DNA of 64,000 nt from a virus (IMGVR_UViG_3300016484_000447:23773-87772), one strand, 5' to 3'; numbered from the stretch's first letter, positions 25,114-62,990 are shown. A program made the numbers and translations. The notes: generated by a model not told the origin, from the sequence alone.

Positions 25114-25968
25114 TTACAGCGGCATTGCTTCGAGGATGGGCACGCCGTCCACGATGAGGCCCGTGCCGATGATCGGGCGCTTCAGGTTGGTGTTGTTGTA
25201 GGCAAACGCCAGCGAGTCGTCGTTGATGAGGCATCCGGTGTTCATCGCCCAGTACAGCCCGCGAGGGTTGGCCCAGTATTCGATTCCGAACTTCTCATGG
25301 TAGTGACCACACACGAAGGACATTCCCATTGCTTGCGACACGCGGACTGCGCTCGACAGCTTGCCGTGGTGGATGTACACGTCTTGACCATCCGGGAGGG
25401 TGATCGTCATGTCCATGTGCCACTTCCAGCCGTCTCCGACGCCCAGCACCTCGTTGTACGGCTTGATGTACCGTCGCGGGATGCCGTGATGCTTCGCCTT
25501 CCGGTAGACCATCGACCCGTGGTTGGAGTCAACCAGATCGACCACTGGGAACAGTTGCTCGACTTTGGCAATCACGGGGAGTGCCTTTTCGAGTTCCGGC
25601 CCGGCGTTGTCGAGGTCAGGGTCCGTGTCGTGGAAGGACATCGCGTGCTTGTCCAGTTCATCCCCGACGCAGATCACCCGTGTCGGCTCGTACCGCTTCT
25701 TCAGGCCCGCCAGGAACGGCAAGAGGCCGCTGTGGTGGTACGGAATGTGCATGTCCGAGATGAACAGGATGCGGGAGTTGTCATGCTCCTTCAGCACCTC
25801 GCCGATGTCCACCGATGCAGCCGCCGCTTCTGTCGGGATGATACCAACTCGACGGAGGTGGTCGCTGACAGTGGACTTCGGCTTCCTCAGTGCGTCAGCG
25901 ATCTGCCGCCAGGAGAGGTTGCCCGTGCTGGCGAGGACTTCTGCTTTCGCCTGCCATGTTTCATTCAT
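25114..25968 (-). CDS. calcineurin-like metallophosphoesterase with N-terminal HTH
   Basis: Carries the metallophosphoesterase motifs ISDMH, GDELDKH, GNHD-like region and GHYH. N-terminal 50 aa look like a helix-turn-helix domain. Confidence 0.65.
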   Translation of the reverse strand: MNETWQAKAEVLASTGNLSWRQIADALRKPKSTVSDHLRRVGIIPTEAAAASVDIGEVLKEHDNSRILFISDMHIPYHHSGLLPFLAGLKKRYEPTRVICVGDELDKHAMSFHDTDPDLDNAGPELEKALPVIAKVEQLFPVVDLVDSNHGSMVYRKAKHHGIPRRYIKPYNEVLGVGDGWKWHMDMTITLPDGQDVYIHHGKLSSAVRVSQAMGMSFVCGHYHEKFGIEYWANPRGLYWAMNTGCLINDDSLAFAYNNTNLKRPIIGTGLIVDGVPILEAMPL

Positions 25969-26554
25969 TGCTCGTAGCTCCTTTCAACTTCTCCTTCTTG
26001 TAGATTTCCACCAGTGCCTCACGACGTCTCTTGTCGTTCGACAGCGCACCAGAATTGTGCCCGAATTTCTCGCAGTGAGCAAGCACTTCAGATTTTTTGT
26101 GGCGCTTCATGAACGCGATTGCCCACTTCTCAGCAAGGGCATCCTCGAACGGAACACCGGAACGCTCTGCGTAGCTCTTGACCTTGTGGCAAGGCTTGCA
26201 GGCGAGAACCCAGTTACCGTTCGTGTTCAGGAGGTTCTGAAGGAACTTCCCAGCCGTCTCCCACGAGTTGCAGGAGCCAGCCATCTCGACGTGATCCACT
26301 TCGAGAGAGCTAGCAGAGAACATCTCCCCGCAGTAGTGGCACTTGCCCAGGCTCTTCGCCCGGCCCGTGTAGCCGTCAGGGGGCGGAACCATCTGGTCAC
26401 GCTTCCAGTCCAGCTTCGCGGGATACCGCTTCCACACTGCGCCTCGAATTCCGCCTCGCACCCACGCCCAGAAGGCCGCAGGCGTCTTCCAGATGTCCGG
26501 GAAGGCTTCCCAGGGTTCCTTATGTTCCATGTCGTTCGGAGTAACCCGCTCCAC
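25961..26554 (-). CDS. HNH endonuclease
   Basis: Motif CHYCG...EVDHV...N...LAC..CH (HNH with zinc ligands). 197 aa. Confidence 0.7.
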   Translation of the reverse strand: MERVTPNDMEHKEPWEAFPDIWKTPAAFWAWVRGGIRGAVWKRYPAKLDWKRDQMVPPPDGYTGRAKSLGKCHYCGEMFSASSLEVDHVEMAGSCNSWETAGKFLQNLLNTNGNWVLACKPCHKVKSYAERSGVPFEDALAEKWAIAFMKRHKKSEVLAHCEKFGHNSGALSNDKRRREALVEIYKKEKLKGATSNE

Positions 26555-27098
26555 TTCCGTTTAACGCTTTGATGGCATCTTCTCTGGCCTTGATGGCAAG
26601 GGCTTTTGCCAATTCCTCTCCGTACCGGCTTACGGAGAATGACTTACACCCACGCCTACCACTCAAAGTAATCCATACCGCCTTCCATCTCGGAGATTGA
26701 GTATGCTCGGCAACCCTACGAATACCTACCGTACCTGACGAGTTCGTGGCAGGCTTCTTGCGGTTCCTCGTGTTGACGCTCTGCCGCACCACTCTCAAAT
26801 TCTCTATGGTGTTGTTGAATGGGTTTCCGTCGATGTGATCCACAACGTTGGTAGGCTGGATGGTAATGCCGTTGAGGCTCAAGATTATGCGGTGGACGCT
26901 GTAGATTTTACCGTGGAGACGCGCCATCCATGCAGCCGGTGCTCCACTCTGCTTGTACATCTTTCTGCCAGCAGGTTCACCAGCAATTGCCACAAGGCGA
27001 CTCCCCCAAGCCCTGTCAACCTTCCACCGCAACCCGGACGGACTCGTCGGGTCGTAGTAGAACCAATCAGCCCAGTTAGGTGTTTGCTTCTCGGTCAA
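26520..27098 (-). CDS. HNH endonuclease (HNH_3-type, with AP2-like DNA-binding region)
   Basis: VDHIDGNPFNNTIENLRVV is an HNH_3 signature. C-terminal basic region. 192 aa. Confidence 0.6.
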   Translation of the reverse strand: MTEKQTPNWADWFYYDPTSPSGLRWKVDRAWGSRLVAIAGEPAGRKMYKQSGAPAAWMARLHGKIYSVHRIILSLNGITIQPTNVVDHIDGNPFNNTIENLRVVRQSVNTRNRKKPATNSSGTVGIRRVAEHTQSPRWKAVWITLSGRRGCKSFSVSRYGEELAKALAIKAREDAIKALNGSGAGYSERHGT

Positions 27099-30348: not shown

Positions 30349-30567
30349 TCAAGCGGGGACGTACAGGGTGTTGCGCGTCTCGAACTGCTCGGTCACTTCG
30401 TCGTAGGCCACGATTTCGGTGGTGGTCGCAGGTTGACCGTTGGTGACGTTTTCGGTGTCGGGGTGATCGACGGGCGTGACAAGCGCACGGTTGCCGATGA
30501 TTGGGCCACCGCAGGCCGGGCCGAAGAATTGAACTTCGGTGTATTGGACGACTTTCTTCTCAGCCAT
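30349..30567 (-). CDS. hypothetical protein
   Basis: 72 aa from MAEKKVVQY with GAGGGGAG RBS. The upstream part of the listed ORF overlaps the dNMP kinase in another frame. Confidence 0.4.
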   Translation of the reverse strand: MAEKKVVQYTEVQFFGPACGGPIIGNRALVTPVDHPDTENVTNGQPATTTEIVAYDEVTEQFETRNTLYVPA

Positions 30568-31219
30568 GAGAACTCCCCTCGAAAGTGTCACACACGATGT
30601 CGAACAGATCATCGAGCGTGCTGTTGTTGTAGATCGTGAAGTCGGTGTCAGCGTTGAACTTGACGCCACCCTCGCTTGCATGGGCGTTGACCTGGGGCGC
30701 AGAATCCCGCACCACATGCCACACTTGTCCGCCCATCTTGCGGATCATCTCCGCTTCGTTCTCGAACCGAACATCGGTGATTGCGACGTTGAATCCGCAG
30801 TCACGCCACTCGTCCACCTTTCGCCGGGCAACCGTGAGCCAGATGTTGTCGTGAACGAGAAGTCGGCCCCATTCTGTGCCCAGCGTCTGAAGCATCTGTC
30901 GGGGACTCTTCGAGAAGTCCTCGATCAGCGTCTCCTTCAGGGCACCGTGGACGTGTTCGTCGGTCAGACCCAGCATCGTCTTCAAGCCCTCCTTCAAGGG
31001 GGCTGCAAACGCAAGGGTCTTGAACTGGAAGGCCGACTGTAGCATCCCTGCCACCGTATCCTTCCCGCTCCGAGCCCGGCCCGTCAGGCCGATCAGCTTC
31101 GGTGTTGGGGAGCCTGTTTCAAGCCCTTCGATGATGGCGCGGTAGTTCCCGCGCTCTTGTGTTGCCGCACCTCCGACTACCTTCAGGAAGTCCTCGGTGT
31201 GGATTGCCAGAACGGTCAT
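30560..31219 (-). CDS. deoxynucleoside monophosphate kinase (T4 gp1-like)
   Basis: P-loop GLTGRARSGKDT and a dNMP-kinase-like fold pattern. The start is placed at the second ATG (RBS AAGGAGAG); 31243 is the alternative. Confidence 0.6.
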   Translation of the reverse strand: MTVLAIHTEDFLKVVGGAATQERGNYRAIIEGLETGSPTPKLIGLTGRARSGKDTVAGMLQSAFQFKTLAFAAPLKEGLKTMLGLTDEHVHGALKETLIEDFSKSPRQMLQTLGTEWGRLLVHDNIWLTVARRKVDEWRDCGFNVAITDVRFENEAEMIRKMGGQVWHVVRDSAPQVNAHASEGGVKFNADTDFTIYNNSTLDDLFDIVCDTFEGSSHG

Positions 31220-31239
31220 TGTCCTCGTTGCTCTCCTTG

Positions 31240-31488
31240 TCAATGTAGTTTGTCATGAAGCCACGTTGCGATGATCGAGCCAAGGCCCGCCCCGACGCCA
31301 ATGACCAGGGCGATGACGCCCCAGCCGTTCTTGGCGACGGTTGACACAACGTAGACCTCGCACAGTGCCATCGCAATACTTGTGGGCAGAATCCACCAGT
31401 ATTTGCGATGCACAACGTTCAGTTGCTGGGCACTCTTCATGCCAACAAACAGAAAAGAAGTCCAGAATGCGATCACGTATTGAATCAT
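31240..31488 (-). CDS. small membrane protein (3 TM)
   Basis: 82 aa, strongly hydrophobic. Confidence 0.45.
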   Translation of the reverse strand: MIQYVIAFWTSFLFVGMKSAQQLNVVHRKYWWILPTSIAMALCEVYVVSTVAKNGWGVIALVIGVGAGLGSIIATWLHDKLH

Positions 31489-31931
31489 CTTGTCAGTAGG
31501 TACTCCTGCATGTTTGAAAGTATTTCAACAGAGTCTTCAACCCTCCCGAGCGTTAAGTTGCATCTTGCGCAAAGCAGCCCGCGTACTCTTCCCGTAGCAT
31601 GGCAGTGATCTATGTGGAGCGACTGCCCAGCCGGGCCATAGCCGTTAGGCTCTTGCTTGCAAATCTCGCATACGCCGTTAGCTCTCTCTAACATCTCTTG
31701 AAGCTCTTCAGGGCGCAGGCCAAGCTTGCGCGCCCTCGTAGCCCGTTGGCTTTGTTTTCTAGCCCTACGGAACTCTGGGTCGTCTGTGTACCGCTTGCGG
31801 CGGGAGGCTTCTTGTCGTGCATTTGTGCATCGCTTGCAGACCCGAGTCCTCCCGCCAGCACACTTTGAGTGCTTCGGGAAGTCCTCCAACGATTTAGACT
31901 CCCCGCAAGAGTTACACAGTCGAGTCAGCAT
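31485..31931 (-). CDS. recombination endonuclease VII (Holliday junction resolvase)
   Basis: N-terminal CxxC..C..C zinc finger plus CEIC...HIDHCH..G.VRGLLCARCN, the Endonuclease_7 signature. Confidence 0.75.
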   Translation of the reverse strand: MLTRLCNSCGESKSLEDFPKHSKCAGGRTRVCKRCTNARQEASRRKRYTDDPEFRRARKQSQRATRARKLGLRPEELQEMLERANGVCEICKQEPNGYGPAGQSLHIDHCHATGRVRGLLCARCNLTLGRVEDSVEILSNMQEYLLTR

Positions 31932-33513
31932 CTTCCTTCTGCACCACGATGTCCTGCACGCGGTTGCGGATCACGTCGAACGGCTCGTCAACCAGCAGCT
32001 TGCCGTCCTTGAAGATGACGCGCAGTTCGCCGCCAGCTTCTTCGTCCGGGGTCACGCTGTCGGACATGACGAACTTGCCGTCCACCAGATCGACACGCAT
32101 CAGGCCACGGGCCGACTTCTTGATGCCGCTGTCGGTCTTCGGGTCTTTGTACAGTTCGACCAGCTTGCCGTCCACCACAGCAGCCGTGGCCTTGACAGCC
32201 AGGGAGAGGGTGTCGCGGGTGACGTACTGGTAGGTGAACGAACCGACGCCGAAGACCACGTTGTTCGACGCAAAGTTGCGCTGTTGCAGGCGAGAGAAGA
32301 TTTCCTCTGCACGGTCCAGGGTGATCGAGTCACCGTAGATCAGGCCGATGGACGGGCTCAGTTCACGGTAGCCGAACTTGTTCACCGTGCCACCGAACTT
32401 CTCCCACAGCACCTCGATGGAGCCCTTGACTTCCTCTTCGGTCAGCGGGCTGACTTCGCCGGGAAGGTGGGGAGCCATCAGCGCCGCCTTGCTGAAGACG
32501 CCCTGCGGGGTGCGGACGATTTCGTCCTCGCGGTAGCCGCAGATGATCCGCACGGGATCGCCGCTGTCGGGGCGGACGACAACCTTGCCCGGCAGGAAGC
32601 CGTTGGGGCCACGCGCCTCGATTTCACCCTTCAGCGCCGGGAGGTACTCGGTCAGCACTTGCCAGTAGTCGATGGTATCGCTCACGATGGAGACGATGCC
32701 AGTCGGGTAGGCTTCGGTGATCCAGTAGCGGATCGTTTCCAGTTCACCATCGACAGCGATGCCCAGCGAGGTGACGCTGTGTTCCGACGCCGGGACACTG
32801 GTGCCGACGAGATAGCCGGTCGGGTAGCCGCTGTAGAACTTGTCCACGAAGCCCAGGGCAGCGATGGTGTCGGTGCCAGAGGACGACAGGAGGTGCCCGT
32901 AGCCAGACGCCGCCGCAGCTTGGCGACCCATGAGGCCGCGAGCCGAGAAGTCGTGGCACTGGAACGGAATGTGGTCACGGTTGCCCACCGTCTCGTCAGC
33001 GAAGCGGCGGCACAGGGTCAGGAACTGGTAGGCGGTGGTCGCCGAGGTGGTCACGCCCCAGCACTCCTGCGACAGCACCGTCTCGATGTACGTCACCAGC
33101 CATGCGAAGTCCTTGTGGGTGTTCTTCCACGTCGCCAGAGGCACCTTGAAGGGCACCTTGGAGCCTTCCGGCAGGGCCTTGATTTCCAGTGGCAGATAGC
33201 CCAGCTTGTGCAGCTTCTCGAAGTGTTCCATCGAGACGGCGCCGACGCCCAGGTAGCCTTCGACACGGGCCTTCCACTCGCCGATCACTTCCTTGAAGGG
33301 GCGCGAGAAGAACTCGTTGTTGAACTCGGCGATGATGAAGCCCTTGATGAAGGCTTGCATCCCGGCCCAGACGACGCGGCGTTCCGCGTCTTGGAACTGG
33401 CAGCGAGCGGCGCTGCGAGCGGTGATGTTGGCGTACAGCATGGTGGTGCCGTCGCGCATGAACTTCTTGTGCGAGAGCTTGTAGCCGTCAGCTTGTTCGA
33501 GGGGCTTGGTCAT
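31912..33513 (-). CDS. nicotinamide phosphoribosyltransferase family protein (NadV/NAMPT-like; candidate Namat)
   Basis: 533 aa with NAMPT family motifs throughout (the DG..M/YG..GT.. pattern, GYRG-like phosphoribosyl-binding regions, C-terminal FGxG). Adjacent to a Prs-like gene. Confidence 0.8.
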   Translation of the reverse strand: MTKPLEQADGYKLSHKKFMRDGTTMLYANITARSAARCQFQDAERRVVWAGMQAFIKGFIIAEFNNEFFSRPFKEVIGEWKARVEGYLGVGAVSMEHFEKLHKLGYLPLEIKALPEGSKVPFKVPLATWKNTHKDFAWLVTYIETVLSQECWGVTTSATTAYQFLTLCRRFADETVGNRDHIPFQCHDFSARGLMGRQAAAASGYGHLLSSSGTDTIAALGFVDKFYSGYPTGYLVGTSVPASEHSVTSLGIAVDGELETIRYWITEAYPTGIVSIVSDTIDYWQVLTEYLPALKGEIEARGPNGFLPGKVVVRPDSGDPVRIICGYREDEIVRTPQGVFSKAALMAPHLPGEVSPLTEEEVKGSIEVLWEKFGGTVNKFGYRELSPSIGLIYGDSITLDRAEEIFSRLQQRNFASNNVVFGVGSFTYQYVTRDTLSLAVKATAAVVDGKLVELYKDPKTDSGIKKSARGLMRVDLVDGKFVMSDSVTPDEEAGGELRVIFKDGKLLVDEPFDVIRNRVQDIVVQKEDADSTV

Positions 33514-33531
33514 TGGTCTGGTTCTCCTTGT

Positions 33532-34359
33532 TCAGATGATTCGGATGCGGGAAGTATAGCACTCCGGGACTTCCGGGGCTGTCATTCCGAGGTTTTGCAC
33601 GAAGATGATGTCGTATTTCGACAACAGTGCGTCGTAGCCCTTGGTGAACATGCCGTGCGTGACGTACAGGTTCAGTTCGCTGGGCCTTGCCGTTGCTCGG
33701 ATGGCATCGGCCACTGCCAGGAACGTCGCCCCGCCGTCGCACAGATCGTCCACGACACAGACTGACTTGTCAGCGATGTCGAACGGTTGGGCAGGAAGCC
33801 GCATACCCGTGATCTTGCCTTCAGGGTCGCGGACCTTGCTTGCACACAGAACCTTGGTCCCGATAGCAGCATCAGCCACTTGGTAGTGCTTGAAGACCTT
33901 CTTCTCGGCACCGGCGTCCGGGGCGACCAGCACGTCATGCACTGGCAGGTTGTAGGCGCACTCTTCCTGCGGCGTCACGCGCAGCTTGTCCACCAGAGCT
34001 TCCAGCACGGAACTGTGGGCGTCGTAGGTCGTGACCAGATCGAAGCCCAGGCTGTTCAGCATGACGCAGAACACCTTCAGTGCGTGGGCCTCGCCGGGTG
34101 AACAGCGGCGGTCTTGGCGGCTGTACGGGAAGTACGGGATCAGCAGCGTCCAGGCGCGGGCGCCAGCGTTCTTCACGATGTCAACCAGTTGAGCCAGAGC
34201 CACCAGATCGTCGTTGCCTTCCCAGCGAAGGATGACTTTCACCACTTCACCGACCAACACCCGCTCCGCGCAGGACTCGATCTTGACACCAGTCTCCCCA
34301 CAAGGGAACTTCCAGACCTTGACGCCGAGGTCGCGGCCAGCAACGCGGGCTGTCAGCAT
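33532..34359 (-). CDS. ribose-phosphate pyrophosphokinase family protein (Prs-like; candidate ADPR-PP synthetase Adps)
   Basis: 275 aa with Prs motifs (PYFPYSRQDR, VVDDLCDGGATF PRPP-binding loop). Confidence 0.8.
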   Translation of the reverse strand: MLTARVAGRDLGVKVWKFPCGETGVKIESCAERVLVGEVVKVILRWEGNDDLVALAQLVDIVKNAGARAWTLLIPYFPYSRQDRRCSPGEAHALKVFCVMLNSLGFDLVTTYDAHSSVLEALVDKLRVTPQEECAYNLPVHDVLVAPDAGAEKKVFKHYQVADAAIGTKVLCASKVRDPEGKITGMRLPAQPFDIADKSVCVVDDLCDGGATFLAVADAIRATARPSELNLYVTHGMFTKGYDALLSKYDIIFVQNLGMTAPEVPECYTSRIRII

Positions 34360-34682
34360 TGGCGCACCTCAACATCGTAGGGGATGTAGCCGTCGCCGAT
34401 CCAGTGCAGCGTGACACTGCCTTCGCCGCTGGCGATGTTCAGGGCGAAGAACGTCTGGCCGTCTTCGTAGTGCGTGGACGACACGGCACTGGTGATGCCG
34501 ACATCCACAAGGTCGGCCAGATCACCGTCGATGCGGTCGAAGCGCGAACGCTCGCTCAGGCTTTCGACACGGATGTTGCCGCCGTCTTGGAACTGGAACT
34601 CGATGAAGTCCCGGACGTGATCGTCACCCATCTCGGCTCCAATGTGGGTCGTGATTCGACCGACGAATTCAGAATGGTTCAA
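34353..34682 (-). CDS. hypothetical protein
   Basis: 109 aa acidic protein. Overlaps neighbours by a few nt. Confidence 0.4.
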   Translation of the reverse strand: MNHSEFVGRITTHIGAEMGDDHVRDFIEFQFQDGGNIRVESLSERSRFDRIDGDLADLVDVGITSAVSSTHYEDGQTFFALNIASGEGSVTLHWIGDGYIPYDVEVRQC

Positions 34683-35046
34683 GCTCTTTCTCCTTGTTCG
34701 TGAACTTCAGTTGGGCGATGCGCAAGTCATCGACTGTCATCGTTGTGTACCCGTGCTTGTTGAGCCATTGTATCACAGGTCTTGGCAGAACCTTGACAAA
34801 ATTTGTCTTCCCGTCGCGTCGAACAGTCGTCACGTTCGGGAAGTCGTCTGGTAGCTTGGTCAGGTACGAGAGCGCCAGTATAACATGCTTTTTCCCCGAA
34901 AGGATAGCCTGCATACAGGCAAGGAGAAGCTTGCTGGCTCCGTCCTCGCCCATCGGGCGCAGAGACGACAGGTACTCTTTCGAGGGCCTTCCGTTTCTCA
35001 CGCTCATTGTAGCACCATCAGTGGCATTCAGCCCAGTTGCGGCCAA
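34669..35046 (-). CDS. hypothetical protein (start uncertain)
   Basis: 125-aa ORF. The first ATG overlaps the DNA polymerase end by 29 nt; alternative start at 35007. Confidence 0.35.
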   Translation of the reverse strand: MAATGLNATDGATMSVRNGRPSKEYLSSLRPMGEDGASKLLLACMQAILSGKKHVILALSYLTKLPDDFPNVTTVRRDGKTNFVKVLPRPVIQWLNKHGYTTMTVDDLRIAQLKFTNKEKELEPF

Positions 35047-38000
35047 GCATGTAGCCTGCCGACAACTCGACGTTCAGCTTGTAGTACCGACCAGCCTCAA
35101 CGACAGCTTCGGTCGCCAGTTCCCCGGCCCGGCAGTAGCCGACGAAGTAGCCCTTCGGCCCCTTCATCACGTCACTCCACCGCTTGCCCGTGGCTTCCTC
35201 TTCAGCAGCCTTGAATGCAGCGGCAGCGGCCTTCGCATCCTTGGCTTCCTTCGAGTCTTCCATCTTCCCCGTCTCTTCGTTCTTGGTCTGCCATTCGCTC
35301 ACAGGGAACGTCTTGAACTTGACCAGTGAACGCTTGACTTCAAGCTGGGCCTCGTCATGGTAGGCGATCAGTTGCTGGCAGAACTCCTTCTCCTTCCAGT
35401 TGTCCCGGAAGAAATCAACTGCCATCCCTTCAGCCTTCAGCTTACGGTCGTGCAACACCATCGCCCGCTTCGCGCAGATCACCCCCGCCGACTGGAAAGC
35501 CGTGTTGATGACGTTACCCTTGCTTCGGATCGGCAGCTTGCGGTTGTCCAGGCCCTTCAGAAACTTCTTCTGGCCCGTCGTCTCCCAATACTGCTGCATC
35601 TTCTCCTTCAGTTCCTTCAGCGGCGCCGCCTGAGTCCAGAAGGTGTCGAAGATGGTCTGAGCATCTTCCAGCGAACAGCCGATGGTCTTGGCGACCCGGG
35701 GCGGCTGTGCATTGTAGCTGCAATTACCAGTCAAAGTCAGAACTCCGCCCTGCCGGATGAAGAACGACTCGCAGGCAGTGGACAGGCAGAATACGTCAGT
35801 CTTACGTGTAGGTGTGAAGTCCCCAGTCTGATACCCGGTGTAAGCAGACCGGCTTCCATTGATAGTTGCCATGCCTTCACCATCAATCCTGACAGTTGTC
35901 TTCATCCCTTCGAGGGCCATAGCTACAGCTATAGCGTCTGCAATGTTTCCAGGCCGCTGGCGGACAACTACTGCATTGATTACCCCTTGGCGACCATCGG
36001 CTTGCCAGAATGCGAGGATGAAGTTCATCCTGCTAACCCCATCTAGGCCGAGAACGTATTGCACCCAGTCGAATTCGTGCTTCCCCTTTCCGTAGAATCC
36101 GTGGCGTTTCGCCATTGCGCGGAAGTCCTCTGGGTCAATTCTGTACTCATTCATGCCACCGTTAGAGTACACAGTGAAGTTGACCCGCGCCATGCGTAGA
36201 GCCACCTCAACATCATCGCAAAACTTCTTCTGTCCCACGTTTGCGATAACACCAAGCTTTTCCCCGTGCCTGTTCTGCCTACATGGCAGAGACTCTGACC
36301 ACTTCCAGTATCCATCTGCCAGCAGCCATCCGATAAGTGCAGCGTCGTTCTGGACAGTGCCCCCGTTTCGCATCGGTGACGAGTTTAGGATAGACGATGC
36401 AGTGTTCAACTCGTCTGTGTACACAAGCCTCACCTCGTCAGAGTAGGCGTTCTTCGCCAGCCACCTGTGGTCTTCCGTTGCTTCGACACTCCAACGCTTA
36501 TTGCCGACTAACCCAACATCCGCGTCAGCGTAGAAGTGGCGCCCTGTAACTTCCGTCCAGTACATCTCCTTGTTTGTAGCATGGTAGCCAAGAACAAAAT
36601 CTCCGACCCCAATCTCGTTGAAAGTCTTCCACCCGTCCCTCGTCAATACATCTGTGTTGTCTACTGGCAAGCACCCATACTTGACGTTCTTCGCAGTCGA
36701 GCGCGGGAATTCCCGGCCCAGAATCTCCGAAATCATCCGCGCCAGCACACTATGGCAGTCGTTTGGCTTTTCAGCCGTCAACGACACCCCGTACTCTGGA
36801 CCGCCCTTGTAGCGGTAGACATAGTGGGCTTCGATCTTCGCTTCCAGGGAGTCGAAGTCATAGCCAAGCTGGACGAAGCCATCATCGACATCGACACCGA
36901 ATTGAGCCCGCATGTTCTTGCCGTACAGCGAAGTCACGCGAGGGATGTTGGCGACTAGCCGATGCTTGAAGCGTGAAGTCCCTGCACCGCAAGAGTCAGC
37001 AGGAGTAGGAATGCGGCCATCTTCTGCGATGCGTTCAGCAGCCAGGAAGCCCTTGCCCGCGAATTCATCATCATCCTCAAGTTCATCAGGGTCAACGCCA
37101 CCGCCAAGGATGGAATTGCGACGGTGAGTATAGGTCAGGTACTCCGAGACAAGCTTGGCGTGGGGGAACTTGTCAGCAAGCTCCAGCAGCGCCGGGTCGA
37201 TTTCCTTCTCCATCCCGACCGTGATCGTCGGGTTCGTGTAGACCTTCAGGGGCCGCTTCAGATCGTGCTTCAGCAGCTTTTCCCGCAGGCGGGAAGGGAC
37301 GGTGTTCAGTTCCTCGCAGCGGTCGCGGCAGAACGGGCTGTTGATCGTCTGCTCGACGTACCGTTCAACCGTCTCTGCGAACTTCTCGGGGGACAGCTTC
37401 TTCTTCTTGCTGTCGCACGTCAGGTCACGCTCCTTGTACTGAGTCGGGCGCCAGCCCATCTCGACAAGCCAGCCCTTGATGTGCGTCGTGTCCTTGACGG
37501 TGGCAGGTTCGTGCGTCTTGACAGGCACGTCAGCCGCCATCGGCAGGCTCCACGCTTTGCCGAAGATGTTGGCAACCCACCTCCCGTCAACCTGCTCCAA
37601 AGTCCCGCCGTGCTTCTCGGCGAACTTCTGCATGTGGCTCGATGGGTTCCCATTCTTGAGAAACTGAATCTTCGGCGGGAGGAATGCCTTCAACTTGGTC
37701 ACGCCCATCGGCTTCTCAGGCAGCAGCGGCTCGACGGTCTGACGGATGGACTCCATCTTCTCGTCAAGGTCGCGGACGTTGGCCTGGGCGAGTTCTTGGT
37801 CGAACCAGAAACCTCGGTGAGAGCCTCGCGTCACGATGTCGCGGACGCATTGCTCCAGGGTAAACGTGTCGCTCCAGTCCCACTCCCCGACTTCCTCCAG
37901 CAACGCCCAGTAGAGCTTGACGTTGACGTGGCAGTCACGCTCGTTGTAGTCGAGCATCTCGGGGTGGTACTGCGCGAACTCAGCACCACGGGGCGCGTTC

Positions 38001-38485
38001 CACGGGATCAGGCCAAGGTCAACGGCCCGCTGGCGCCAGTCGATCTTCTCCAGGCCCAGGCGTTTGCCCCATTCGTCCAGCGAGTGCCCGCCATAGCGGT
38101 CAGGGTTCAGGGCCTTTGACCAGACCAGCGTATCCACGATTTCGACTGGTTGCCCGTCGATGGTGCATTGGTCTGCAATCTCGTAGTCGATGTCGAAGTA
38201 CAGCTTCAGCACCAACAGGTCGTAGTCGATGATGTTGTGGCCGATCACCGTCTTCAGCTTCTTGAAGAGAGGGACGAAGCCAGTTCGCATCTCTTCCTCG
38301 CCAGCAAAGCGATACACCCGACCCGTGTCGATGTCGATGATGACCGCACACCAGACGCGGAAGATAGGCTTCAGCTTGAACGGGGCGGCGCGGTAGTCGA
38401 TGGTTGTGTGGTCGAGAAGCCCGTTGGCTTCCACGTCAAATACGCCCCTCATAGGGTCTTCTACTCCTTCAGGTAGGCGGTGCAA
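35018..38485 (-). CDS. family A DNA polymerase (T7 gp5-like, 3'-5' exo + pol) interrupted by an intein
   Basis: Exo motifs FDVEANGL, YNERDCHV. Pol motifs DFDSLE(A), motif B RSTAKNVKYG|...|CSYNAQ, motif C HDE-like. The 1155 aa include a 317-aa insertion. Confidence 0.85.
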   Translation of the reverse strand: MHRLPEGVEDPMRGVFDVEANGLLDHTTIDYRAAPFKLKPIFRVWCAVIIDIDTGRVYRFAGEEEMRTGFVPLFKKLKTVIGHNIIDYDLLVLKLYFDIDYEIADQCTIDGQPVEIVDTLVWSKALNPDRYGGHSLDEWGKRLGLEKIDWRQRAVDLGLIPWNAPRGAEFAQYHPEMLDYNERDCHVNVKLYWALLEEVGEWDWSDTFTLEQCVRDIVTRGSHRGFWFDQELAQANVRDLDEKMESIRQTVEPLLPEKPMGVTKLKAFLPPKIQFLKNGNPSSHMQKFAEKHGGTLEQVDGRWVANIFGKAWSLPMAADVPVKTHEPATVKDTTHIKGWLVEMGWRPTQYKERDLTCDSKKKKLSPEKFAETVERYVEQTINSPFCRDRCEELNTVPSRLREKLLKHDLKRPLKVYTNPTITVGMEKEIDPALLELADKFPHAKLVSEYLTYTHRRNSILGGGVDPDELEDDDEFAGKGFLAAERIAEDGRIPTPADSCGAGTSRFKHRLVANIPRVTSLYGKNMRAQFGVDVDDGFVQLGYDFDSLEAKIEAHYVYRYKGGPEYGVSLTAEKPNDCHSVLARMISEILGREFPRSTAKNVKYGCLPVDNTDVLTRDGWKTFNEIGVGDFVLGYHATNKEMYWTEVTGRHFYADADVGLVGNKRWSVEATEDHRWLAKNAYSDEVRLVYTDELNTASSILNSSPMRNGGTVQNDAALIGWLLADGYWKWSESLPCRQNRHGEKLGVIANVGQKKFCDDVEVALRMARVNFTVYSNGGMNEYRIDPEDFRAMAKRHGFYGKGKHEFDWVQYVLGLDGVSRMNFILAFWQADGRQGVINAVVVRQRPGNIADAIAVAMALEGMKTTVRIDGEGMATINGSRSAYTGYQTGDFTPTRKTDVFCLSTACESFFIRQGGVLTLTGNCSYNAQPPRVAKTIGCSLEDAQTIFDTFWTQAAPLKELKEKMQQYWETTGQKKFLKGLDNRKLPIRSKGNVINTAFQSAGVICAKRAMVLHDRKLKAEGMAVDFFRDNWKEKEFCQQLIAYHDEAQLEVKRSLVKFKTFPVSEWQTKNEETGKMEDSKEAKDAKAAAAAFKAAEEEATGKRWSDVMKGPKGYFVGYCRAGELATEAVVEAGRYYKLNVELSAGYMLGRNWAECH
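35723..36673 (-). mobile_element. intein with LAGLIDADG homing-endonuclease domain inserted in PolA motif B
   Basis: The insertion begins with Cys right after KYG of motif B (CLPVDNTDVLT...). It contains two LAGLIDADG motifs (LIGWLLADGYW, ILAFWQADGRQG) and ends ...TLTGN followed by Cys (+1). The extein junction restores YG|CSYNAQ, matching polI motif B YG-S...Q. Confidence 0.7.
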
Positions 38486-38646
38486 CGCACCTTCTTCATG
38501 CCGTCAGGGTCAACGCCGATGACGGGCATGGTTTTGAATTCGAGGTCGGAACAGTCCTCCCCAGCCCTGTAGCACGAACAACACATCCGCCCAGAGGGGC
38601 GGTGCGTCATCGGCTCGACTTCACAGTCTAGCACGGGTTCGTTCAT
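38461..38646 (-). CDS. small Cys-rich protein
   Basis: 61 aa from MNEPVLDCE...CCSCY...C. Its ATG overlaps the stop of the HD gene (ATGA). Confidence 0.3.
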   Translation of the reverse strand: MNEPVLDCEVEPMTHRPSGRMCCSCYRAGEDCSDLEFKTMPVIGVDPDGMKKVRCTAYLKE

Positions 38647-62294: not shown

Positions 62295-62990
62295 TTATCC
62301 CTGCACTCCGAGGGCCTGAAGCCGCTTTAGAACCCCGTGAACCGTGCTAGCGTGCCATTGTCCACCCCTGGCTGTCCTGTTGCCCTGTGCGTTTAGCTCT
62401 GCTGCCATCTGGGCGCACGTCATACCCGCCGACCTCATCCGCAACACCACCGGGGCAAGGTGAAGGGCGAAGCTGTCCGCCTCTGCCTTGATCGCCTGCA
62501 CTGCCGCTGCCCGTGCCCTGGGGCCGCTTTCCTCTGGCGCCCTATGGGACGCTATGCCTAGGGCCTGTCCCCGTGCCTGGAGGGCCTTTAATGCTGCCCT
62601 GGTGCGTTCCCCGATGGTGCGCCGCTCATGCTCTGCCAGCATCGCCTTTAGGTGAAGCTGGAAGGGCTGAACCTCTAGCCCATCCTCTACCGTGGCAAAG
62701 CTGGCCCCTTGGTTCATCAGGGCCGCGACGAACTCAACCGACCGCGATAGTCGGTCAAGCTTGGACACCAGCAAGACGGCCCGCCCCTGGCGTGCCTGTG
62801 CCAGTGCCTGACGTAGACCGGGGCGCCTGTCTAGGCCATAGCCGCCTGACGCTACCTCTTCGACGTGCCCCACCTCTTCCCCTTGGTGCGACTGAATGAA
62901 GCGACGAAGGGCCGCTAGCTGGGCCTCTAACCCATTCCGGCTGTCGCCCTGTTCCTGCGTGCTTACCCTGGTGTAGAGAACGAACCGCAT
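62295..62990 (-). CDS. serine recombinase (resolvase/invertase family) with C-terminal HTH
   Basis: MRFVLYTRVSTQEQ places catalytic Ser at position 10 as in gamma-delta resolvase. Also LVSKLDRLSR and a C-terminal helix-turn-helix. Start placed at second ATG, downstream of a TATAAT. Confidence 0.75.
   Translation of the reverse strand: MRFVLYTRVSTQEQGDSRNGLEAQLAALRRFIQSHQGEEVGHVEEVASGGYGLDRRPGLRQALAQARQGRAVLLVSKLDRLSRSVEFVAALMNQGASFATVEDGLEVQPFQLHLKAMLAEHERRTIGERTRAALKALQARGQALGIASHRAPEESGPRARAAAVQAIKAEADSFALHLAPVVLRMRSAGMTCAQMAAELNAQGNRTARGGQWHASTVHGVLKRLQALGVQG

Follow-up and report, generated by a model that had tools for sequence, protein, structure and literature searches.

The NARP1 pathway, by which phages rebuild nicotinamide adenine dinucleotide (NAD+), has been defined biochemically in the Bacillus phage SPbetaL1 and joins a Prs-like enzyme, Adps, to a Nampt-like enzyme, Namat (Osterman et al., bioRxiv 10.1101/2024.02.11.579819; Lan et al., PMC12774641). 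It was found in 859 phage genomes (4.3 %), where 97 % of the genes of the Adps clade neighbour a Namat; Adps and Prs fall in separate clades, and the Adps-linked Namats are distinct from the Nmnat-linked Nampts (Osterman et al., bioRxiv 10.1101/2024.02.11.579819) that serve the alternative pathway, NARP2. Structures have been solved for the Adps of phage ICP1 by Liu et al. (PMC13586617) and, with bound NAD+, for the Namat of SPbetaL1 by Lan et al. (PMC12774641). We describe here two adjacent genes at positions 31912 to 34359 of a 64,000 nucleotide (nt) stretch of viral DNA (IMGVR_UViG_3300016484_000447:23773-87772), the whole of which is referred to below as the window. These genes encode a Prs-like and a Nampt-like protein and very probably constitute a NARP1 anti-defence module of an uncultured tailed phage of ~88 kb. 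Judged by its sequence, the pair is a genuine NARP1 module, carried by a phage lineage not characterised before, and an ordinary new example of a known and common system.

The Adps-like and Namat-like gene pair

Both genes lie on the minus strand. The upstream gene, adps (33532..34359, 275 amino acids (aa)), encodes a predicted PRPS-like ADP-ribose pyrophosphokinase, and the downstream gene, namat (31912..33513, 533 aa), a predicted Nampt-like nicotinamide ADP-ribose transferase. They are co-directional and separated by 18 nt, and an AAGGAG ribosome-binding site (33524..33529, minus strand) can be read from the sequence within this spacer, 10 nt 5' of the namat ATG; a GAGGTG site, also read from the sequence, stands 5' of adps (34365..34370, minus strand). 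A sequence-only reading of the window had described a 533-aa NAMPT-family gene directly downstream of a 275-aa Prs-family gene in the same operon. Its coordinates and families were confirmed by open reading frames (ORFs), Pfam, PHROG and NCBIfam, and the shared orientation, short gap and ribosome-binding site in the spacer uphold the operon. A consensus scan of 8.8 kb (30.4–39.2 kb) detected no promoter or terminator above chance between adps and namat. Signal counts around the pair were at chance level and mark no boundary of the transcription unit; we therefore place the pair within a long co-directional array that extends from the DNA polymerase gene to the deoxynucleoside monophosphate (dNMP) kinase gene.

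The adjacency of adps and namat is not due to chance, as the pairing recurs in relatives of this phage and in every validated NARP1 phage examined. The order adps then namat is common to SPbetaL1, ICP1, Felixounavirus, Barbavirus, Kayvirus, Pakpunavirus and a mycobacteriophage, and it is kept across clade relatives whose Adps is 39–58 % identical to that of the window. In metagenomic relatives with 53–58 % identical Adps, the arrangement is polymerase, two small ORFs, adps, namat, one or two small ORFs and dNMP kinase; in a more distant relative a homing endonuclease separates adps and namat, as in Felixounavirus. Membership of the Adps clade has been tied to a Namat within ten genes of adps, and in the window it is the next gene.

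Database matches of the 275-aa protein were to Pribosyltran_N in Pfam (8e-11) and, in PHROG, to phrog_619, 'ribose-phosphate pyrophosphokinase' (2.7e-71). Three features of the Adps family emerged from the ICP1 structure, namely a remodelled PP loop and donor site (C215–S220 and a Phe221 cap in ICP1), a catalytic Lys carried on a β-hairpin, and loss of α11–α12, which is a signature of the family (Liu et al., PMC13586617). In the window protein the PP loop reads DDLCDGGATF (residues 204–213), compared with DDICDGAASF in ICP1, DDICDGGATF in PAK_P1 and DDMIDTGGTL in 10 Prs sequences, and across 49 clade members little or no variation is seen at C207, D208, G209, G210, T212 and F213. The hairpin, SKVRDPEGKITGM, holds K175, the equivalent of ICP1 K185 and SPbetaL1 K162, where Prs proteins read DKRRPxANV; K175 and R177 are invariant in the same 49 members. 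Also present and invariant in the clade are R81, H115, D148, D204 and D205, which together with K175 correspond to ICP1 R87, H121, D161, D212, D213 and K185. These acceptor and catalytic residues are common to Adps and Prs and therefore indicate competence rather than specificity, but the hairpin in which the Lys is set is of the Adps type. In alignment the protein ends ~24 residues short of the Prs C-terminus and has no α11–α12 segment, and its best 120 database homologues are all of 244–293 aa. An AlphaFold2 (AF2) model (pLDDT 95) has the PRPS fold without the terminal helix pair; Foldseek aligned it to PRPS with a TM score of ~0.76 at 25 % identity, its matches (among Protein Data Bank (PDB) entries released up to April 2026) being PRPS structures only, with no solved Adps among them.

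Profile scores and trees agree with these local features. On TIGR01251 the 275-aa protein scored 100.7 bits, below the cutoff of 113, as did the Adps proteins of SPbetaL1 (106) and ICP1 (98), with a Bas63-type Adps at 124 and E. coli Prs at 423 (422.7). On the other Prs-specific NCBIfam models it scored 47–82 bits against cutoffs of 296–536, the E. coli Prs control reaching 533 (532.6). An Adps hidden Markov model (HMM) gave 195.8 bits, compared with 56.5 for an HMM of gamma-proteobacterial Prs, and the same pattern was returned in leave-one-out analysis of seven reference Adps-type proteins, each of which is encoded next to a Namat and two of which, those of ICP1 and SPbetaL1, are biochemically proven. 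In a neighbour-joining tree, Prs was split from the remainder in 200/200 bootstraps, and the window protein lay in the non-Prs cluster with the validated Adps proteins. Adps-like homologues were present in 1564 phage records. The assignment of the 275-aa protein as an Adps, which would pyrophosphorylate ADP-ribose (ADPR) and not ribose-5-phosphate, is therefore well supported by its sequence.

The 533-aa protein matches Pfam NAPRTase (2.6e-36) and phrog_448, 'nicotinamide phosphoribosyl transferase' (1e-174). In SPbetaL1 Namat, Lan et al. (PMC12774641) defined a 'selectivity clamp' formed by a conserved helix motif (SCH) and a variable β1–β2 loop (SCL). The SCH consensus, GS-X-phi-X-phi-X-phi-TRD, is confined to Namats and its aromatic X residues at positions 3 and 7 stack on adenine; the third residue of the SCL, also a stacking residue, is typically Arg, Lys or Tyr (PMC12774641). 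At residues 424–434 the window protein reads GSFTYQYVTRD, in full agreement with the consensus and with F426 and Y430 equivalent to SPbetaL1 F392 and Y396; the SPbetaL1 motif, GSFTYQYNTRD, differs at a single position, where Asn or Val is usual. When aligned, nine Adps-linked enzymes read GS[FY][TS][YS]Q[YFC]x[TS]RD without exception, whereas all five KVP40-like or NMNAT-linked phage Nampts read GG[GAQ]LLQxxxRD. In three further clade relatives the motif opens with GS and an aromatic residue, and in two of these His or Met takes the place of the third aromatic residue. The SCL is long, as in Namats and unlike that of NARP2 Nampts, but atypical in its third residue, Ala36. The Nampt-like core is also conserved (D9, Y11, F189, R192, D215, H245, R314, D316, G394, D395, R433 and D434, compared with SPbetaL1 D13', Y15', F189, R192, D215, the catalytic His, R306, D308, G360, D361, R399' and D400'), and all residues of the nicotinamide and nicotinamide mononucleotide (NMN) site and the phosphorylatable catalytic His are in place.

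Searches with the whole protein lead to the same placement. A phmmer search of the PDB gave 409 bits to SPbetaL1 Namat (9W5X/9W5W) and ~180 to human or bacterial Nampt, and a Namat HMM gave 632 bits as against 237 for an HMM of NARP2 Nampts. The scores of a tblastn search of phages (2049 records) were bimodal, at 300–480 bits for ICP1, Felixounavirus and Kayvirus and 100–176 bits for T4-like and KVP40-like phages and the phiM12 group. In a neighbour-joining tree of 13 sequences, Adps-linked and NMNAT-linked enzymes were split in 200/200 bootstraps, with the window protein on the Adps-linked side as sister to that of Rheinheimera phage Barba19A (178/200). There is thus good support in the sequence for the 533-aa protein being a Namat, which would prefer ADP-ribose pyrophosphate (ADPR-PP) and make NAD+ directly. 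Across the pair, every published catalytic residue is conserved, as are the specificity residues except at Ala36 of Namat and the position of ICP1 Phe92 in Adps.

Two observations on other members of this enzyme family were made in passing. The PDB entries 9KE8/9KEO, named 'nicotinamide phosphoribosyltransferase', align to the 533-aa protein with 400 bits but read GAQTYQRNTRD instead of the GS-aromatic clamp motif, and they may represent a third flavour of the Nampt/Namat family; we found no publication describing them. In the ICP1 isolates 2017_Dha_AD and 2019_Dha_H, an in-frame stop interrupts the namat frame ~27 codons into the homologous region, and the annotated coding sequence therefore starts late (439 aa), without the N-terminal D/Y residues of the nicotinamide site. 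In 2019_Dha_H the adps match is also in two pieces.

The distinction between NARP1 and NARP2 depends in addition on whether the genome encodes an NMN adenylyltransferase (NMNAT; PF01467, usually fused to Nudix), as NARP2 requires. We examined the window and ~19.3–19.5 kb of flanking sequence, i.e. ~95 % of a genome of ~87.8 kb, or all but 4.5 kb starting beside a tRNA array, and an NMNAT was not found. No PF01467, Nudix or NadR-type domain was detected in the ORFs of 18.9–64 kb, nor in those tail, fibre and lysis ORFs that were scanned; the structural block at 1–9.9 kb was covered by a precomputed Pfam gene table (to ~10.9 kb) and tblastn, and precomputed Pfam matches included no NMNAT in the flanks. 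A tblastn search with the NMNAT–Nudix protein of phage phiM12 gave a best E value of 0.28, and the motif GxFxPxHxGH was absent from all six frames of the window and 19.5 kb of flanks.

Weighing the NARP1 assignment

Should the pair act as NARP1, a host NAD+-depleting defence (Thoeris, DSR1/2, SIR2-HerA, SEFIR, Kongming or similar) would cleave NAD+ to ADPR and nicotinamide, and Adps would move the β,γ-pyrophosphate of ATP onto the distal ribose of ADPR (ADPR + ATP → ADPR-PP + AMP). Namat, with its adenine-binding clamp at the entrance to the active site, would then exchange the pyrophosphate for nicotinamide (ADPR-PP + nicotinamide → NAD+ + PPi), and the route would need neither an NMN intermediate nor an NMNAT. 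We infer the two enzymatic activities and the anti-defence role from homology to the systems of SPbetaL1, Bas63, ICP1 and DyoEdafos.

Several points weigh against this assignment. Identity to the proven enzymes is moderate (34–37 % for Adps, 44–46 % for Namat). The third SCL residue of the window Namat is Ala36, followed by R37 as a possible stacking Arg, whereas K-Y or K-H, as is usual, stands here in two relatives of the clade. In the 275-aa protein the adenine contact Phe92 of ICP1 is replaced by Cys, although the position varies in other Adps-type proteins too. The Prs outgroup was gamma-proteobacterial only, both trees were neighbour-joining rather than maximum likelihood, and the NMNAT search covered all of the genome but ~5 %, the 4.5 kb mentioned above. 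Finally, Namat enzymes keep residual activity in vitro in the conversion of phosphoribosyl pyrophosphate (PRPP) to NMN, and a contribution via NMN is therefore possible.

The alternative that survives best does not replace NARP1 but extends it, proposing that the core pair is served by additional, partly unlinked parts, i.e. an Adpp-like Macro phosphatase and possibly the two small ORFs upstream of adps, u1 and u2, so as to cover modified ADPR products. We consider this possible but rather unlikely. Adpp converts ADPR-1''-phosphate to ADPR and extends NARP1 against aRES defence; it is carried by 15 % of NARP1 operons and is functional in Vibrio phage Gary. The present genome does encode a Macro-domain protein of 148 aa (L011 6961..7407, ~2.4–2.9 kb past the 3' end of the window; PF01661, 4e-12), which shares 35 % identity with the product of the Macro gene immediately 5' of adps in Barba19A, and 31 % with the 'phosphatase' of PAK_P1, whose gene stands two genes after namat. 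However, NARP1-AP operons are recognized by a gene for a Macro domain (PF01661, PF14519 or PF20016) lying no more than two genes away, and within that distance we found only u1, u2, endonuclease VII and a holin-like ORF; the Macro gene, which lies outside the window at ~32 kb from the operon, therefore falls beyond the published linkage. Moreover, its product has the DarG macrodomain as best NCBIfam match (65.6 bits) and may counter DarT-type DNA ADP-ribosylation, and Macro genes are present in 1237 phage records, a large number of which have no NARP1 nearby. To go by these matches, the protein could be an unlinked Adpp, and an anti-DarT role is equally possible. The presence of RyDEP, a glycosidase with an RyR domain (PF02026), or of Adpp inside the operon itself was considered and rejected, as the flanking ORFs had no such Pfam match; for PF02026 there was none at E ≤ 0.01.

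With regard to the small ORFs, u1 (34353..34682, minus strand) is an acidic ORF of 109 aa directly upstream of adps, and u2 (34669..35007, minus strand), of 112 aa, lies between the DNA polymerase gene and u1. The stop codon of u1 and the ATG of adps overlap in ATGCTGA (34353..34359, minus strand, read from the sequence), an arrangement indicating that the two genes are translationally coupled. In favour of an accessory role, both ORFs are conserved beside adps in the clade, at 27–37 % identity overall (34 % between u1 and its equivalent in the relative L102; 36–37 % for u2 within the clade). Against it, neither has a Pfam or PHROG match, conservation is restricted to this phage clade, other NARP1 phages having neither ORF and, in particular, no u1 ahead of adps, and a single-sequence AF2 model of u1 (pLDDT 52) yielded no usable fold. 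As accessory factors, the two proteins might channel other products derived from NAD+ into the pathway, or block a host NADase. That the clade runs a 'split' or extended NARP1, with the Macro protein acting as Adpp in trans and/or u1 and u2 as new accessory factors, or, more narrowly, that the unusual Ala36–Arg37 clamp loop changes the donor specificity of Namat, we hold to be improbable.

A more fundamental alternative is that the pair boosts classical salvage, a true Prs and a true Nampt (NadV) making NMN from ribose-5-phosphate, ATP and nicotinamide, with host NadR/NadD completing the synthesis. The database names do say Prs and Nampt, Namats retain the capacity to form NMN from nicotinamide and PRPP in vitro, and the 533-aa protein passes NCBIfam PRK09198 with 482 bits (cutoff 405). 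This last model was rejected as a discriminator, however, since SPbetaL1 Namat (594) and a KVP40-like Nampt (504) both pass it. Classical salvage is very unlikely because the 275-aa protein fails every Prs model, has a rewired donor-site PP loop and is missing α11–α12, and because SPbetaL1 Adps, of the same sub-family, yielded no product in the canonical Prs assay; the 533-aa protein, for its part, carries the adenine clamp motif that is absent from NMNAT-linked Nampts. A NARP2-type system, in which the Prs-like gene would supply PRPP to a Nampt and an NMNAT would be encoded elsewhere, can draw on the 4.5 kb outside the search and on the fact that KVP40-type phages place their two genes apart or adjacent, but is extremely improbable given that no NMNAT or Nudix domain was found in the remainder, that the edge of those 4.5 kb borders the tRNA array, that the 200/200 split sets the 533-aa protein against the NARP2 Nampts, whose GGxLLQ motif it does not have, and that phages with both pathways have not been reported (Osterman et al., bioRxiv 10.1101/2024.02.11.579819).

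The NARP1-type pair of Adps and Namat proposed in the sequence-only reading is thus supported by the clamp motif, PP loop, hairpin, C-terminal loss, profile scores, clades and synteny, and the poor fit it saw to NARP2 or classical salvage is sustained by the search for an NMNAT, the failed Prs models and the lack of GGxLLQ. It had noted no NMNAT nearby, which holds well beyond the vicinity of the pair: Pfam, tblastn and the motif scan found none in ~95 % of the genome, in the wider search that it had recommended. The phylogenetic placement it had suggested as a check put both proteins with the Adps/Namat groups (neighbour-joining, 200/200 splits, with a gamma-proteobacterial Prs sample). Its caution that sequence alone cannot separate Prs from Adps is, on the other hand, outdated, as the structural signatures of 2026 (PMC13586617, PMC12774641) and the separate clades distinguish the two.

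The understanding of the pathway is unchanged by this finding, which adds to the carriers of NARP1 an uncultured, high-GC phage lineage of ~88 kb with dozens of related metagenomic contigs. It also illustrates that the structure-derived signatures can be used to re-annotate 'Prs + NadV' pairs of metagenomic phages without experiments, and it predicts resistance of this phage to NAD+-depleting defences, which would be useful in choosing or engineering phages.

Neighbouring genes and the phage genome

An endonuclease VII gene (31485..31931, minus strand; Pfam 1e-21) follows namat, its start overlapping the final 20 nt of the latter. The corresponding gene stands upstream of the small ORFs in relative L102 and is absent in relative L101, and it therefore looks mobile; additional nuclease genes, of the HNH and HNH-AP2 types, are found at 25961..27098. 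In the window genome the slot after namat is thus occupied by endonuclease VII and the holin-like ORF, whereas L101 (8378..9112) and L102 (8678..9211) have a conserved gene of 177–244 aa directly after namat, with 54 % mutual identity and an H..HD-like motif but no Pfam match and no homologue in the window genome. The dNMP kinase gene (30560..31243, minus strand) lies three genes downstream of namat, and two to four genes downstream across the window and both clade relatives. Phage dNMP kinases trigger the NAD+-depleting Kongming defence (PMC12774641), and it may be, speculatively, that the linkage of this gene to NARP1 is more than a shared metabolic module.

The exact Adps and Namat proteins are present on the metagenome contig k141_569334 (ENA ERZ27292660; 87,915 bp) and on a Logan contig (82,244 bp). 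A terminal overlap of ~141 nt, established by coordinate bookkeeping, indicates that the genome, of which the window represents 64 kb, is circular or terminally redundant. The 9.5 kb upstream of the window encode a tRNA array, terminase, portal, protease and capsid, and the 9.8 kb downstream encode an RNA ligase, RtcB, the Macro-domain protein and small ORFs. Searches for the remaining 4.5 kb returned relatives of only 46–47 % in IMG/VR, no exact match among JGI contigs and, at the protein level, a 94 % cluster representative on a contig of 1.7 kb. The pair is set in a block of replication and nucleotide-metabolism genes within the window, which includes those for ribonucleotide reductase, glutaredoxin, ThyX, dNMP kinase, a UvrD-like helicase, a primase-helicase, a ligase and a family A polymerase. 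No cultured phage has a terminase more than 41 % identical to that of the present genome; the nearest are Pakpunavirus and a Limnohabitans phage, and the match list also contains many Rheinheimera (Barbavirus) and Escherichia phage records. A megablast search of the locus against phages returned a single match of 145 nt at 75 % identity, and there is therefore no close cultured relative.

The tRNA array comprises at least 10 genes (Leu, Trp, Gln, Met, Asp, Ile, Glu, Asn, Ala and Pro; L008 16..1726), all upstream of the terminase gene and outside the window, which itself contains no tRNA gene; the array probably continues into the unsampled 4.5 kb (at about 34002–38503 of the ENA contig). Also outside the window, the RNA ligase gene (L011 2596..3855) lies near that of RtcB (L011 4442..5716), which suggests a module for the repair of tRNAs, by which anticodon nucleases could be countered. 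Between ~52000 and ~62000 the GC content is 0.63–0.65, compared with 0.57–0.61 in most of the remaining window, the AT skew is positive and the many small ORFs are all without a Pfam match; the region differs in composition and probably holds early genes. A serine recombinase gene (62295..62990, minus strand; Resolvase N-terminal domain, 1e-25, and Recombinase domain) is present in a genome that otherwise looks lytic. The DNA polymerase gene (35018..38485) contains an insertion of 317 aa (35723..36673, minus strand), missing from the polymerases of clade relatives (806–810 aa, as against 1144), that sits after a conserved KYG, begins CLPVDN and finishes LTLTGN followed by Cys. Its boundaries are intein-like and it contains a LAGLIDADG-like stretch, LLADGY, although Pfam gave no match to a Hint or LAGLIDADG domain within it.

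Comparison with described systems

Cellular Prs (E. coli b1207 and human PRPS1) shares with the window Adps its fold (TM ~0.76), R81, H115 and the DD of the ribose site, yet is only 25–29 % identical, has another PP loop and hairpin, and extends ~24 residues further at the C-terminus, where α11–α12 contribute filament and allosteric elements. NARP2, as represented by the KVP40-type Nampt and bifunctional Nmnat/Nudix protein of Vibrio phages, has the same superfamily fold, catalytic residues and NAD+-restoring purpose. Its Nampt differs, however, with 28–30 % identity, GG[GA]LLQ in place of the aromatic clamp and a short β1–β2 loop, and its partner is an NMNAT where that of the window Namat is a Prs-like gene.

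Among NARP1 phages, Felixounavirus (Bas63, compared via phage skuden) and ICP1 have Adps proteins 37 and 34 % identical to that of the window, with the same CDGG-type PP loop and K-x-R-[DN]...G-x-I hairpin, and Namats that are 43–46 % identical with the motif GS[FY]TYQY.TRD. Felixounavirus genomes, at 85–93 kb, are in a similar size class to that of the window phage, but in them adps and namat are separated by the gene of an HNH homing endonuclease, and the Namat (593 aa) has a much larger insertion; ICP1 differs in its F92 adenine contact. The closest cultured Namat is that of Barba19A (Rheinheimera), at 49–51 % identity, and the Adps of PAK_P1 (Pseudomonas) has a near-identical PP loop and RF loop. 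Both of these phages have the Macro 'phosphatase' beside NARP1 and are of the NARP1-AP type (bioRxiv 10.64898/2026.01.28.702374), unlike the window genome with its remote Macro homologue.

The biochemically defined NARP1 of SPbetaL1 (Adps WIT26982, Namat WIT26983; PDB 9W5X/9W5W) belongs to a phage of a different host phylum. Its PP loop reads DDLSSFGGTF where the window protein has the DDxCDGGxTF variant common to ICP1, Felixounavirus and Pakpunavirus, and its clamp loop is five residues shorter and uses R40 in place of Ala36–Arg37; the window Namat in turn has extra insertions at 303–308 and 331–352 and a C-terminal tail of 10 aa. The two systems nevertheless have the same gene order, their Adps proteins are of 272 and 275 aa with the same catalytic Lys and the same shortened C-terminus, and between their Namats (45.6 % identity) the catalytic core is unchanged and the clamp helix differs at one tolerated position.

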